DNA of 64,000 bases, from the NCBI GenBank assembly GCA_963733035.1, contig CAVTBU010000006.1, positions 800,001 through 864,000 on the forward strand, read 5' to 3'. Source of the stretch: Pirellulales bacterium (GTDB taxonomy: Bacteria > Planctomycetota > Planctomycetia > Pirellulales > PALSA-1355). Position numbers and translations under genes: made by a program. The notes below the pieces were generated by a model that worked only from the letters and a program-made list of their open reading frames with translations, did not search any database and had not been told where the DNA came from. Position 1 is the first letter of the stretch. The number at the start of each line of letters is the position of its first letter. This document shows positions 40,983-46,641 of the stretch, piece after piece.

Positions 40983-41678
40983 TCAGTCGCCGGGGCCCTT
41001 CTTGGGCCGGCCGCGGGGGCGGAAGGTGGATTCGAGGTGGAGCTGCCCGGCGGCCTTGCGCTGCCAGGCGTCGCTGCCGTAGGGGCGGCCGCGGCGGATG
41101 CTTTCGGCGATGGCTTGCACCTCGGCCTCGGTCTGCGGCCGGTTGACGCGCTCGACCCACTTGCGGCCCAGCGGCACCGGCGGCTCGGCCAGCGGGATCA
41201 CGGCCGACTCTGGGCCAACGCCCCCCGGCAGCCGCTGATGCAGGCTTCCCCAGGGATAATCCTCCGCACGCTTTACCAGCCGGGCGCGCAGCGGATTCCG
41301 TTCGACGTAGCGGAGCACCCTCAGCAGGTGCTCATCGCTGGCGACGGGAAAGGACTTGAAGCGGCCCTGGTAGACGTGCCCCATGCCGGCCGTGCCATGG
41401 TGGGCGTGCCAGCGCTGGGCGTGCGTGATCGAGAGCCAGCGGAAGAAGTCCGACACCTGCTCCCCCTGGCCCCGCATGGGCCAGACGACGAAGTGCCAAT
41501 GGTTGTTCATCACGACGTAGCCGAGAATCCGCAGCGGCACACGCTCATGGGCAGCGGCCACAATCTCCTCGAAGGCCGCGAAGTCGGCCGCTTTGCGAAA
41601 TAGTCGCAATCGGCCGTTGGCCCGATTGAGGATATGATAAACATATCCGCCCAGAAGCGTGCGAGCAGTGCGAGGCAT
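40983..41678 (-). mobile_element. HUH/Y1 tyrosine transposase (RAYT/TnpA-REP-like), gene 1
   Basis: MPRTAR, YHILNRAN, HUH motif MNNHWH, QGRFKS, catalytic YVERNP, YPWGS and RGRP tail. Confidence 0.92.
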
Positions 41679-41717
41679 GTCGCCCATCGTACCGCCCACA
41701 CCGCCCGTCGGCAAGAG

Positions 41718-42200: not shown

Positions 42201-43217
42201 ATGATTCGACATGCCCGCCGTTGCCTGAGTGGTCTCCTGCCCTGCTTTGTCATTCTTTCGTCTAATCTGTCAGCATTGGCCGTCATGATTCCCACCGTCC
42301 CAGTGGGCAATCTTGGCAACGCCAACGACTATACAGGCTACGGCAGCGTCAGCTACGCGTACAACATCGGCAAGTACGAGGTCACCAACGCCCAGTACGC
42401 CGCGTTCCTGAACGCCAAGGCAGCAAGTGATCCCCTGGCCCTCTACAACACAAACATGGGCAGTATTGCCTTCGGCGGCATCACTCGTAGTGGCGTCAGC
42501 GGCGGCTACACCTATGCGACCAAAACGAACATGGCAGACAAGCCGGTGGTGTTTGTGAGTTGGTACGACTCGATCCGCTTTGCCAACTGGCTCAATAACG
42601 GGCAGGGGTCGGGCGACACCGAAACCGGCGCATACACTCTGTTGGGCGGCACGCCCACGCCCTCGAATGGCCTGAGCATCACCCGCAACTTGGGAGCGAC
42701 GTGGTTCCTGCCGAGCGAAGACGAATGGTACAAGGCGGCCTATTATCAACCGGCCGCACAGGGAGGCGATGCGGACAACTACTGGCGCTATCCCACGGCC
42801 AGCAACACCATACCCACGATCGCCACGGCCAACAGTGTGGGCGATATTAGTAACCCTGGCTCGAACGTTGCCAACTTCAACGGCGGCGCGGATTGGAACG
42901 GCCTAGACAGCAACGTGACGACGGTCGGCAGCGCTGGACCCTTGAGTGAGAGCTTCTACGGCACGTCTGACCAAGGGGGCAATGTGTGGGAATGGAACGA
43001 AGCTCTGCTCTTCGAGTCGTTTCGGGGCTTGCGGGGTGGTTCGTTTGACTACGTCGTGAGCGGCTTGGCGTCCTCGCAGCGGACCTTCTTGAACCATCCG
43101 ACCTACCAGTACTTCAATGTCGGTTTCCGCGTGGCAAGCATTCCTGAGCCAAATACGGCAGTTCTAGGAATCGTCGGTTGTGCGTTGATGTGGGTACTAC
43201 GAAAGTGGTTCAAGTAG
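42201..43217 (+). CDS. SUMF1/FGE-sulfatase-domain protein with a PEP-CTERM tail
   Basis: IGKYEVTNAQY, PVVFVSW, LPSEDEWYKAAY, GGNVWEW, RGGS, VGFRVA and IPEP-TM-RK. Confidence 0.9.
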   Translation: MIRHARRCLSGLLPCFVILSSNLSALAVMIPTVPVGNLGNANDYTGYGSVSYAYNIGKYEVTNAQYAAFLNAKAASDPLALYNTNMGSIAFGGITRSGVSGGYTYATKTNMADKPVVFVSWYDSIRFANWLNNGQGSGDTETGAYTLLGGTPTPSNGLSITRNLGATWFLPSEDEWYKAAYYQPAAQGGDADNYWRYPTASNTIPTIATANSVGDISNPGSNVANFNGGADWNGLDSNVTTVGSAGPLSESFYGTSDQGGNVWEWNEALLFESFRGLRGGSFDYVVSGLASSQRTFLNHPTYQYFNVGFRVASIPEPNTAVLGIVGCALMWVLRKWFK

Positions 43218-43270: not shown

Positions 43271-43361
43271 TCATGCGCTCAGCACTCAAAGGATGCCCGT
43301 AAACGTGGCATATGCCAGCCAGGAAAAAACAAGGAATGCGAAAACATGCCAAGCGAGCAAA

Positions 43362-43619
43362 TGACCTTCCCCACGATTCGTGGCGCGCGACAGAACTGGC
43401 ATAATGCCGGTGAAAGGAGCGTGTCATGGGTCGTCGAGTGTATTCGCGTGAGTTCAAGGTGTCGGCGGTCAAGTTGGTGAACCAGCAGGGCTATACGGTC
43501 GTGGAGGCGGCCAAGAGCCTGGGCGTGGACGCCGCCTCGATCCGCAATTGGCTGAAGAAGTTCGGGCCGGAAGTGGGCGTCAGCGCGAGCGGTGACTCGG
43601 CTTTGCGGGCGGAACTGCG
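43362..43619 (+). mobile_element. IS3-family remnant: left end plus truncated orfA
   Basis: TG-initiated TGACCTTCCCCACGATT end, AGGAG RBS and HTH orfA (RRVYSREFKVSAVKLV..AAKSLGV..IRNWLKK, from 43426), cut at a Y1 end. Confidence 0.8.
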
Positions 43620-43681
43620 GGGGAAGAAAAAGGGACATCACTGATTGTTTGGGGAAGAAAAAGGGACATCACTGATTGTTT
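43620..43681 (+). repeat. Tandem 2 x 31-bp Y1 left end (variant A)
   Basis: GGGGAAGAAAAAGGGACATCACTGATTGTTT twice. Confidence 0.92.
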
Positions 43682-43715
43682 GACGGGGTTCGCTGGATAG
43701 GGTTACGATGGCGGC

Positions 43716-44081
43716 ATGCCACGCACTGCACGAGCCGTCGAAGCCGGGTTGATCTATCACGTGCTCAATCGTGGGAACGGGCGGATGCGACTGTTTCACA
43801 AGGACGAAGATTACGCCGCCTTCGAGCGAGTGCTGGGCCAGGGGCTGGAGCGGTATCCGGTCGATCTGTTGACCTACTGCATCATGCCAAACCACTGGCA
43901 TCTCGTCGTGCGGCCGCGCACCGACGAGTCGCTGGGGCGCTGGCTGGGCTGGGTCGGCGTGACCCACGTGCGGCGGCACCACGAGCACTATCATCGCCGC
44001 GGCGGCGGGCACCTGTACCAGGGCCGGTTCAAGAGCTTTCCGGTGGAAAGCGACGAGGAGAAGAAAAGGGGACATCACTGA
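43716..44081 (+). pseudogene. 3'-truncated duplicate of Y1 gene 2
   Basis: Identical by eye to 44189..44530; stops at ..PVESDE, then reads into a new left end. Confidence 0.9.
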
Positions 44082-44153
44082 TTAATTGACGGGGTTCGCT
44101 GGATAGGGAGAAGAAAAGGGGACAGAGAAGAAAAGGGGACATCACTGATTAAT
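44058..44153 (+). repeat. Three nested Y1 left ends (variant B) of 50 bp, 17 bp and full length
   Basis: GAGAAGAAAAGGGGACA restarts at 44058, 44108 and 44125. Confidence 0.92.
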
Positions 44154-44188
44154 TGACGGGGTTCGCTGGATAGGGTTACGATGGCGGC

Positions 44189-44860
44189 ATGCCACGCACT
44201 GCACGAGCCGTCGAAGCCGGGTTGATCTATCACGTGCTCAATCGTGGGAACGGGCGGATGCGACTGTTTCACAAGGACGAAGATTACGCCGCCTTCGAGC
44301 GAGTGCTGGGCCAGGGGCTGGAGCGGTATCCGGTCGATCTGTTGACCTACTGCATCATGCCAAACCACTGGCATCTCGTCGTGCGGCCGCGCACCGACGA
44401 GTCGCTGGGGCGCTGGCTGGGCTGGGTCGGCGTGACCCACGTGCGGCGGCACCACGAGCACTATCATCGCCGCGGCGGCGGGCACCTGTACCAGGGCCGG
44501 TTCAAGAGCTTTCCGGTGGAAAGCGACGAGCACTTTCTGGCCCTTTGCCGCTACGTGGAGGCCAACCCACGGCGTGCGAAGCTGGTCGGGCGAGCCGAGC
44601 ACTGGCGTTGGAGTGGGCTGTGGCGGCGGACCTCGCGGGCGACCGACCTGCCGCTGAGCCGCTGGCCCATGCGGCGGCCGGCGAATTGGCAGGAGCGAGT
44701 GAACCGAGCCCTGCCGAGCGAGACGATGACGGCCTTAAGAGAATGCGTACAGCGCGGCCGCCCCTGGGGCGACGCGGCGTGGGTGCAAGAAACGGCCAGC
44801 CGCCTGGACCTCGGCTTCACCCTCCGCGGCCCCGGTCGCCCGAGAAATGGAAATCAGTGA
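44189..44860 (+). mobile_element. HUH/Y1 tyrosine transposase (RAYT/TnpA-REP-like), gene 2, full length
   Basis: YHVLNRGN, MPNHWH (HUH), QGRFKS, YVEANP and WRWS; the stop codon lies inside the right inverted repeat. Confidence 0.93.
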
Positions 44861-44902
44861 TGTCCCCTTTTCCTCTCCCAGTGATGTCCCCTTTTCCTCT
44901 CC
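44852..44902 (-). repeat. Right terminal inverted repeat, tandemly duplicated (27 + 24 bp)
   Basis: AATCAGTGATGTCCCCTTTTCCTCTCC then CAGTGATGTCCCCTTTTCCTCTCC; reverse complement of the left end with one mismatch. Confidence 0.92.
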
Positions 44903-45032
44903 AACGGGCATCAAGTACATCACACCGGGTGGGGAAGCCAACATCCCACAGAGAATCGTCGATTGGCTCCAGGACGGAAACAAAAACGGACTTGGCTACG
45001 CGATCGAAATCGTCGACTTTCCAATTCCATAG
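44903..45032 (+). pseudogene. Orphan 3' gene fragment, possibly a polymorphic-toxin tip
   Basis: TGIKYITPGGEANIPQRIVDWLQDGNKNGLGYAIEIVDFPIP* has no start of its own and ends 6 nt before the next gene. Confidence 0.45.
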
Positions 45033-45038
45033 GCGGCC

Positions 45039-46094
45039 ATGATGCTTGAGCGTGACGGAGGCCGCCTAGTAGTGTCAAGCCAGCTGCTCTCGGTGGAGGA
45101 GCTGCGATCGACAATCGACACGATTTGCCAGAATCGATCGGGAGCACGTTGGAGTCTATGGTGCTTTGATGGACGCTGGCGACCACCCAATGAATTAGAT
45201 GAAGTCCTGGTGTACCTCCCCCGCCGACTGGCGCCTCTCGCCTGCTTTCGCCTTTGTCAGGACGGAGGAGTCGTCTGCCATGTGAAAGTCAATCTCGATT
45301 GCCGCTATGAACCGGCGATGCTCGGGACGCTCCTGGAGTTTCTCAGGGACTTCCCACATGATCAGGTGTCGGTGGTTGGAATAAGTTGTCGAGTGGTCAC
45401 GCGTTCCGACGCAGACACGTCCGCTGGCAAGTTTCTGTTGACAGTAACTGGACGAACAACACGAAGATTGCCAAACTTTCTCGTTGGGTTGGGTCACGTG
45501 TACGGACTGAAGGACCTCGATCAGCGGCGCCGTTTTTTCGAGAGTGCTATCTCGTTGGGATTGCCGAACGACGTCGAAATCACTTGCTCACATGATGGCT
45601 TTGAACTGCGCTCGACGTCTTCGATCGAATTGAAACAACAAGGCCTTAAGAACGGCCGGAATCCTTATGGCTTCCACGTGGAATCAATCAAGAGCTTTGC
45701 CGAAGCATGGCCGCGCGCCGCCGGTATACTGACCAGCCCTCTAATCGATCACATCAGTACGGTTGGCGTGGGAGTTGTAACAGATCCCGCAGGGTATGTA
45801 AAGTTTCATGAGATACTGAACAACCTCGCCACCGGCTGGGAAGTGCAAATAGACGGTGGCTATGATCCAGATATCGATCCGTACTCAACAGATGCTTCAA
45901 GGTCGCTCGACGGCCGATTTCCAATTCTCACCTGGATGGCAGAAGAAGCTCCTGAATATCTCTACTTTGGGGCCGACATCGTTCCAATGCCTGATGGTCG
46001 CGTGCTAGAGATTCACAGTAACTGTGGCAACATCGAGATGCTACTCGGGGAAGCTGAGTCTGCAAGTGGTATCTCGTTCGCGCCAGTACAATAG
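45039..46094 (+). CDS. Hypothetical protein, lower GC, putative immunity-type protein
   Basis: 351-aa ORF with visibly AT-richer codon usage. Confidence 0.6.
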   Translation: MMLERDGGRLVVSSQLLSVEELRSTIDTICQNRSGARWSLWCFDGRWRPPNELDEVLVYLPRRLAPLACFRLCQDGGVVCHVKVNLDCRYEPAMLGTLLEFLRDFPHDQVSVVGISCRVVTRSDADTSAGKFLLTVTGRTTRRLPNFLVGLGHVYGLKDLDQRRRFFESAISLGLPNDVEITCSHDGFELRSTSSIELKQQGLKNGRNPYGFHVESIKSFAEAWPRAAGILTSPLIDHISTVGVGVVTDPAGYVKFHEILNNLATGWEVQIDGGYDPDIDPYSTDASRSLDGRFPILTWMAEEAPEYLYFGADIVPMPDGRVLEIHSNCGNIEMLLGEAESASGISFAPVQ

Positions 46095-46134: not shown

Positions 46135-46462
46135 ATGATGCTTGAACAAACTGACAGAATCGACGTTATCGCAAAGACGCCGGATGGCAAGCTGCTTTTC
46201 GTCATTACGGACGCTGGCTTGACTCCGGATCCTGAGGAGCGTTTTCGTCTACTGCTTGCCAAGCTGAGCACCTATGTTGGCTACATCATGGGCGATGACT
46301 TTTCCCGCGAACATCCGGACAAGGCCCCCTCTGACGTCGCCATTCAGATCATGTGTGCGCGCCCCTCCCACGCCACAAATGCAGGGTCTCACCCAAATCA
46401 ATCCGTCCGGTCGCCCCGACCTGACCATTCCGGTGTGCTGCAAATTTTTCGCACAAGGTTAA
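46135..46462 (+). CDS. DUF6572-like small protein with a frameshift at ~46362
   Basis: IDVIAK..LFVITD..LLAKLSTYVGYI, continuing in another frame as PPTPQMQGL..IPV. Confidence 0.5.
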
Positions 46463-46542
46463 GCAGCGTCATGATGCCATGTAGGAAGCCGCTGGTAGGA
46501 TGGCGAGTTGAATTGGACTCGCTCGAATACAGGAGGCTCGAC

Positions 46543-46641
46543 ATGGCTGCGTATTTCGTGGGATTGGATGTGCACTTGCCGCCTTGTACAAAAAGAATGC
46601 CACAGCCTGTTCGGCACTTCGGGAGCGTCGTCGAGCCGTGA
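46543..46641 (+). pseudogene. IS110-family transposase N-terminal stub
   Basis: AGGAGG RBS, then MAAYFVGLDVH (first catalytic Asp motif), followed by unrelated sequence. Confidence 0.5.

Follow-up and report, generated by a model that had tools for sequence, protein, structure and literature searches.

The 64,000-nt stretch of DNA analysed here, from a Pirellulales bacterium (assembly GCA_963733035.1, contig CAVTBU010000006.1, positions 800,001 to 864,000; hereafter the window, numbered from its first letter), carries a small element in which the gene of a Y1 HUH tyrosine transposase-like enzyme is enclosed by terminal inverted repeats (TIRs), with partial copies of the element's own ends stacked outside these repeats. 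All of these copies begin at the outer boundary of the element and break off at variable distances inward. Such end-anchored stutter is a family trait that extends across several phyla. As to its origin, we consider it on balance probable that the locus is a TIRYT-type element, i.e., a RAYT-like Y1 HUH gene with its own promoter-like site and ~26-bp inverted repeats with the core AAAAGGGGACA, the ends of which were stacked by nicking at the boundary, extension and rejoining (nick-extend-rejoin).

Reading of the sequence between 43300 and 45300 together with a repeat finder reveals five left-end copies in head-to-tail order that share one outer boundary and run inward for 31, 407, 50 and 17 nt before the complete 754-bp element is reached (Table 1). 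The arms of the latter (44125-44150 and 44852-44877; 26 nt) are 96 % complementary, the right one taking in the TGA stop codon (44858-44860). On the right side, the outermost 24 nt of the element (44855-44878) are followed by an exact repeat of themselves, a mirror-image restart. An earlier sequence-only reading of this DNA had described the five left-anchored units, the right restart and a gene placed between inverted repeats of which the right one overlaps the stop codon; all its coordinates hold. Allowing up to 3 mismatches, the 17-mer core of the end motif occurs six times in the window, always at the element locus and nowhere else in the 64 kb; shuffled sequence contains 0.07 occurrences on average and none of 100 shuffles reached six. 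No target-site duplication was seen at the outer junctions of the array within 43300-45300, and Rfam gave no match between 42500 and 46000.

The longest partial copy, unit 2, retains an intact start and an open reading frame (ORF) of 121 aa (43716-44081), which by tblastn is 100 % identical to residues 1-114 of the full protein; judged from this frame, it would yield a shortened protein that retains the HUH motif and lacks the catalytic tyrosine. Two promoter-like sites, one of them in unit 2, compare with a mean of 0.4 in shuffled sequence.

Table 1. Features of the element, its stacked ends and the adjoining gene fragment (positions in the window)
Feature	Position	Strand	Basis
IS3-type orfA 5' fragment (HTH_Tnp_1), ends where the array starts	43426..43619	+	Pfam, E 8e-13, profile positions 2-61 of 75
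Unit 1, 31-nt partial left-end copy, A-type	43620..43650	+	repeat families D2 and D3, unit alignment
Unit 2, 407-nt partial copy with A-type end, promoter-like site (43680-43709) and first 342 nt of the gene	43651..44057	+	unit alignment
Unit 3, 50-nt partial left-end copy, B-type	44058..44107	+	repeat family D2, 100 %
Unit 4, 17-nt partial left-end copy, last letters GGGGACA	44108..44124	+	repeat family D3
Complete element, 754 bp	44125..44878		sequence reading, repeat finder
Left terminal inverted repeat of the complete element, core GGGGACATCACTG	44125..44150	+	inverted repeat I3
Promoter-like site TTGACG-18-TACGAT, directly inside the left repeat	44153..44182	+	consensus match only
Y1 HUH tyrosine transposase-like gene, 223 aa, RAYT/TIRYT type	44189..44860	+	Pfam, alignment, model
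Right terminal inverted repeat, overlapping the stop codon	44852..44878	-	inverted repeats I1 and I3
Right-end restart, exact 24-nt repeat of the outer portion of the right TIR, inner end ...CACTG	44879..44902	-	repeat family D4, 100 %

Homologues of the window protein are numerous (7337 at E up to 0.001, the best 88 % identical), and among the best 120 of these matches nearly all with a named organism belong to Planctomycetota or Pirellulales. A scan of genome contigs provided 79 loci (numbered with the prefix L below) with 42-88 % identity, the hosts of which are Planctomycetota, Nitrospirota, Patescibacteria-type groups, proteobacterial metagenome-assembled genomes (MAGs) and others. A flanking inverted repeat scoring at least 13 is present at 70 of the 79 loci. 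In 25 of the 31 closest ones the core GGGGACATCACTG is located on the plus strand 50-56 nt before the ATG and its partner directly after the stop codon. Of 70 arms, 38 contain the motif GGGGWSA and 11 the full 8-mer GGGGWSAS, mostly 46-54 nt before the ATG; the window core, GGGGACAT, agrees with 7 of the 8 positions of GGGGWSAS and lies ~54 nt upstream of the ATG. In more distant relatives the repeats are different ones, and some of them are hairpins (z -4.0 at L070, a doublet hairpin with z -11 at L025). A search of plasmids returned only relatives that are at most 36 % identical, among them two gene copies ~30 % identical to the window protein on the Pseudomonas aeruginosa plasmid NZ_CP116719.1 (L080, 600-1420 and 2900-3720), each flanked by perfect 32-bp inverted repeats with the core AAAGGGGACAG.

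The recurrence of stuttered ends was quantified by an anchored count of ungapped matches scoring at least 10 to the innermost end and starting within 2 nt of the arm start, in a sample of 73 loci with 136 ends that includes the window and three plasmid copies. The 300 nt outside the end contain 85 matches on the same strand, distributed over 44 of the 136 ends, compared with 13 matches on the reverse strand (10 of 136 ends) and a single match inside the element (1 of 136). Control segments yielded one match at a distance of 1.5 kb (1 of 115 ends) and none at 3 kb (0 of 102) or 5 kb (0 of 88). The possibility, raised in the sequence-only reading, that homologous loci never show end-anchored partial copies is contradicted by the 35 of 73 loci with at least one stuttered end (13 of the 30 close loci, 22 of the 43 distant ones), nine of which, the window included, stutter at both ends. 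Counted units are 10-106 nt long, most of them <25 nt; the 407-nt unit of the window exceeds the 300-nt span of the search. Two other procedures were abandoned. A repeat count at the same score threshold without anchoring (122 same-strand matches versus 51 on the reverse strand and 52 far away) had too high a background and was replaced by the anchored count, and a dynamic-programming parse of the arrays into prefixes over-split them into tiny units and was not used for counting.

Inspection by eye gives an idea of the variety behind these numbers. L027 has left units of 18, 30 and 24 nt and right units of 24 and 15 nt, and end-anchored partial copies are likewise seen at L001, L019 and L026. 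L042 (a beta-proteobacterial MAG with a different repeat) shows five partial copies per side; at L047 there are about ten, and one of them extends into the gene. L063 has a unit of ~106-108 nt; partial copies were also recognized at L034, L074, L077, L056 and L048. L047, L074 and L077 are Patescibacteria-type MAGs, and both repeat sequences and hosts differ among the stuttered loci. Units reaching into coding sequence occur in the window, L006 (by 17 nt), L047 and L063. Upstream of one of the two P. aeruginosa plasmid copies there are end-anchored partial copies of 14 and 74 nt, and even small non-coding derivatives of the element at L007 and L012 stutter at their ends. In the close subfamily, copies detected with an exact seed start 9-13 nt before GGGG in 15 of 17 cases and end 3 to 70 nt past it.

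Many homologues sit on contigs of ~1 kb, which implies that assemblers struggle with this element and raises the question of whether the arrays could be artefacts of assembling a repeated sequence. However, the same anatomy is found in assemblies with differing styles of contig names (contig_, NODE_, k141_), which presumably come from different pipelines, and on the plasmid record of a P. aeruginosa isolate. In addition, assemblers tend to collapse repeats rather than to invent partial copies of variable length. Given this recurrence across differently assembled records and on an isolate plasmid, an artefact is very improbable indeed.

Stacked ends might also be left behind as nested fragments by repeated insertion of the element into itself, or by imprecise excision followed by re-insertion at the same spot. 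Extra copies, whether full, frameshifted or internally deleted, are indeed found near the gene at L016, L018 and L027, the internally deleted ones at L016 (12060-12300) and L018 (17637-17890). Gene copies at L027 (8152-8819 and 10001-10668) and L031 (10001-10662) are split into two frames according to tblastn and are either frameshifted pseudogenes or the result of indel errors in the assemblies. Extra right-end motifs occur 650-1070 nt upstream of the gene at L001 and L004, and plus/minus motif pairs away from the gene are present at 7 of the 31 close loci, most of them within ~2.6 kb of it. Such small repeat-bounded derivatives include three non-coding ~140-bp elements at L007 (2385-3700), a minimal pair of 40 bp at L014 (12090-12180) and further elements at L008 (8410-8630 and 11315-11450). 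Local re-insertion therefore does occur. Nevertheless, nested insertion predicts pieces of the right end among those of the left, or pieces that match them, and the window has no right-end motif among its four left partial units and only one partial unit on the right; nested insertion is thus unlikely to have built this array. Known Y1 enzymes, moreover, excise precisely, as described for IS608. As a general explanation of the stutter, we regard nested insertion as quite improbable.

The enzyme encoded by the window gene is of the Y1 HUH type; among solved structures, that of E. coli TnpA-REP is the closest. The only Pfam family matched by the protein is Y1_Tnp (PF01797; 49 bits, cutoff 23), which is also matched by 38 of 38 aligned family members, while the NCBIfam model REP_Tyr_transpos for REP-associated tyrosine transposases scores 61.6 bits, below its equivalog cutoff of 80. 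In an alignment of the window protein with 37 relatives (A1), H60 and H62 of the HUH motif, which reads N-H-W-H, are invariant, as are Y122 and N126 of the sequence YVEANP; the Y motif is thus of the Y...NP type and not the Y...Q of IS200. The AF2 model of the protein has a pLDDT of 91, and its C-terminal domain is helical, confidently modelled and ends in GRPR. Structure comparison ranks 4er8, E. coli TnpA-REP in complex with a REP hairpin, first, followed by the transposases of ISDra2 and IS608 (2xm3 and 2vjv). A profile search of the PDB agrees in order (4er8 with E 2.4e-8, 2xm3 with E 1.3e-4); it was needed, as a search with the single sequence produced chance-level matches only. A separate observation concerns the C-terminal G-R-P at residues 216-218 (44834-44842), which resembles the core of an AT-hook: R217 is invariant in A1 and G216 and P218 are conserved in at least 90 %. 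The match to AT_hook itself is weak (E 0.39) and limited to 2 of 38 members.

A Y1 gene bounded by TIRs is of an already known kind, since the name TIRYT (or TIRtron) was given in 2013 by Di Nocera, De Gregorio and Rocco to RAYT-like genes with TIRs in place of REPs (PMC3733652), and these were tied to a defined subclass in 2018, when Quentin et al. suggested that TIRYTs correspond to TnpAY1 subclass 2.1 and to Group 1 of Bertels (PMC6006769). In the 2013 paper, the motif GGGGWSAS is noted as common to the repeats and as similarly spaced from the gene, and TIRs are also recorded as single copies, dimers and groups (PMC3733652). Group 1 RAYTs are described as the most widespread ones, plasmids included (Bertels et al. 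2017, PMC5581495). Rhodopirellula baltica has been named as rich in such genes. The window element resembles TIRYTs in that a RAYT-like Y1 gene is bounded by inverted repeats (arms of 26-27 nt), and its family does so in the repeat copies found away from the gene and, in part, in the core of the repeats and its spacing from the ATG. As for hosts, R. baltica is a planctomycete.

There are also differences. For subclass 2.1, the literature mentions C-terminal similarity to the helix-turn-helix (HTH) families Bac_DnaA_C, HTH_23 or HTH_28; in contrast, Pfam detects none of these in the 38 members of the window family at E up to 1. The HUH motif of the window protein, NHWH, departs from NHVH or NH[YF]H (PMC6006769). 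Finally, in the available text of PMC3733652, variable-length end-anchored partial copies are not mentioned; those of its passages containing 'tandem', 'reiterat' and 'cluster' that were examined (12 of 25) concern whole REP units, and the words 'partial' and 'truncated' do not appear in it, nor does 'tandem' in PMC6006769 and PMC5581495 or 'truncated' in PMC6006769. No description of such copies was found in the literature, supplements, figures and subscription journals being outside the search. The sequence-only reading had regarded the locus as the best candidate for a poorly described system. This has to be revised in two respects: TIR-flanked Y1 genes have been named (PMC3733652) and discussed as subclass 2.1 (PMC6006769), and nick-extend-rejoin has been modelled for the amplification of BIMEs by TnpA-REP (PMC3333891). 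The spread of repeats by RAYT-type enzymes as such is still termed poorly understood in the abstract of PMC8266576.

The E. coli TnpA-REP/BIME system (REPtron) is close to the window element not only by structure. The mechanism that we propose would share with it a Tyr-5'P link, a free 3'-OH and the local tandem amplification of end units. REPs are nevertheless hairpins with a 5' GTAG guide that are cleaved at CT, whereas the window ends do not fold beyond shuffled sequences (z 0.48 to -1.41) and lack GTAG. BIME arrays, in addition, repeat whole units, while the units in the window are cut to various lengths and take in a stretch of the gene. The IS200/IS605 elements (IS608, ISDra2) have in common with the window protein the Y1 HUH fold and presumably the same single-strand cleavage chemistry. 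They differ by subterminal hairpins on one strand, the lack of inverted repeats, a Y...Q motif and a length of ~150 aa (PMC6006769, Table 1); the window element combines inverted repeats with a 223-aa protein of the Y...NP type.

A resemblance to one-ended events of IS91 had been noted in the sequence-only reading and turns out to be loose. IS91 and ISCR also depend on a HUH enzyme, have one fixed and one variable end and use nick-primed synthesis. Their enzymes are, however, larger Y2-type proteins of a different family, and their variable end is found outside the element, beyond a missed terminus, so that one-ended events read outward. The 223-aa window protein matches only Y1_Tnp, and the variable end lies inside the element, inward from the fixed one.

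How might the stutter arise? In vitro, according to PMC8266576, cleavage by TnpA-REP leaves the enzyme on the 5' phosphate (Tyr-5'P link) and frees a 3'-OH, and an unrelated attacking oligonucleotide with a 3'-OH can resolve the tyrosine link and become joined. In the model of BIME amplification by Ton-Hoang et al., the 3'-OH primes host synthesis, which is followed by a second cleavage and rejoining, and REP-directed cleavage has been reported >400 nt from the bound REP (PMC3333891). Transposed to the TIRYT-type element, the enzyme would recognize the repeat on the strand that reads AAAAGGGGACA and nick it ~10-12 nt 5' of GGGG, at the outer boundary of the element. Tyr122 would stay on the 5' phosphate of the element strand and a 3'-OH would be left on the flank, which a host polymerase could extend inward, re-copying the first x nt of the element. 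The new 3' end may then attack the tyrosine link, once a second cleavage has cut the new strand or synthesis has come to a halt, with flank, L[1..x], L[1..] as the presumed product, and the next round of replication would make this end-anchored partial copy in tandem permanent. Arrays could be built up if such events recur, with slippage at a later stage and exchange of the terminal module contributing. The right end would gain mirror-image copies because its motif is on the opposite strand.

The BIME model predicts a fixed outer boundary, variable inner ends, same-strand copies outside the element and the mirror image at the right end, provided that the second step is possible at many distances. 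This fit between the anatomy and a published model is the reason why nick-extend-rejoin is taken as the most likely mechanism; nick-primed copying of the element into its own boundary, as already proposed in the sequence-only reading from the combination of one fixed and one variable inner end, is also our best explanation. The anatomy of the locus, its place in the family and the recurrence of the stutter are observations. For the TIR-flanked Y1 family we infer every step of the above series, the part played by the enzyme included; where the nick lies and which polarity it has is deduced from the junctions only.

Several points weigh against nick-extend-rejoin. Biochemical work on the TIR-associated Y1 group was not found in the literature, the loci are known from assemblies, most of which are MAGs, and 38 of the 73 loci show no stutter. 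The inner ends of the 17 exact-seed copies in the close subfamily are clustered: 4 of them lie after ...CACTG, 3 after GGGGACA and 5 after GGG(G). Such clustering requires that either a second cut is made at a specific site or the polymerase pauses. No cleavage dinucleotide was drawn from an analysis of junction bases: purines end 72 of 85 units, but this figure is distorted because matches are extended maximally into next units that are rich in purines and because the search has a boundary. Simple local re-copying also does not explain the distribution of differences between units. Units 1 and 2 carry a variant, A-type end that departs from the B-type end (units 3-5) at 4 positions, none of them beyond nt 31; over the next 376 nt (nt 32-407), unit 2 matches the full copy without exception. 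The chance that 4 random differences among 407 positions all fall in the first 31 is ~3e-5. The terminal module of units 1-2 (43620-43681 versus 44125-44155) thus seems to have a history of its own, and since units of ~30-33 nt recur at L001, L019 and L027, this module may be exchanged as a unit. Finally, L034 contains regular higher-order repeats of 17, 18 and 39 nt, as expected from slippage or unequal exchange.

This last observation leads to the explanation that slippage or template switching during host replication at purine-rich, G-run ends generates the arrays while the Y1 enzyme is uninvolved. The ends are of low complexity (GAAGAAAAGGGG), short units of 10-25 nt dominate, and regular arrays exist not only at L034, with its 17-nt units, but also at L004, where three right ends of 23 nt follow each other. 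Yet slippage needs a prior repeat and yields equal units, whereas here units of unequal lengths (as long as 106 nt in relatives, 407 nt in the window) share one boundary. The pattern is, in addition, mirrored at both ends of nine loci, accompanies unrelated repeat sequences in different phyla and is next to absent inside the element in the anchored count. We consider slippage unlikely as the origin of the stutter, though it deserves to be taken seriously, and it probably adds to existing arrays such as those of L034 and L004.

An extension of nick-extend-rejoin, which appears distinctly unlikely, would make stutter the by-product of a copy-out pathway for TIRYTs. As the recognition motif is on opposite strands at the two ends, both outer boundaries would be nicked and the 3'-OHs of the flanks would prime strand-displacement synthesis inward; the displaced, enzyme-capped strands could then anneal to give a free double-stranded copy, the donor being restored. 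Stuttered ends would be fossils of aborted initiation, and the terminal module of ~24-31 nt would be an exchangeable piece with a cleavage site on either side. If true, this would be a pathway not described for Y1 enzymes.

The element locus sits in a patch of mobile-DNA remains, as judged from a cut orfA, an ORF tail, a second Y1 gene and a drop in G+C content. The reading frame of the orfA fragment continues into unit 1 up to a stop at 43644 (ORF 43426-43644), and NCBIfam gives weak IS3 and IS66 matches for this fragment. On the right, the array adjoins the tail of an unrelated short ORF (44903-45032, plus strand). The element was therefore inserted into other mobile DNA, or became linked to it, and sequence was lost in the process. 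The second TIRYT-like Y1 gene (40995-41678, minus strand, within the ORF 40983-41714) is 46 % identical to the first and is preceded by a related motif (AAAGGGGACGTGAACCTTT) 58 nt before its ATG, for which no inverted partner was detected on the downstream side. The G+C content drops from ~0.62-0.64 to 0.56-0.59 across roughly 42-54 kb, values to the left ranging over ~0.60-0.67, and this stretch may be an island holding remains of mobile DNA. Among the neighbouring genes on the plus strand, 42201-43217 encodes an FGE-sulfatase domain protein, with a C-terminal tail that resembles a PEP-CTERM sorting signal, and 46135-46641 a DUF6572 protein.

What may be new here is the documentation of end-anchored partial copies as a hallmark of the TIR-flanked Y1 family across phyla. 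Stutter arrays can be viewed as natural records of an enzyme acting on its own ends. Read in this way, their junctions would place the likely cut ~10-12 nt outside the GGGG core and indicate its polarity. The arrays fit the nick-extend-rejoin model of BIME amplification and make this model testable. They also provide a practical annotation flag for TIR-flanked Y1 elements in metagenomes.

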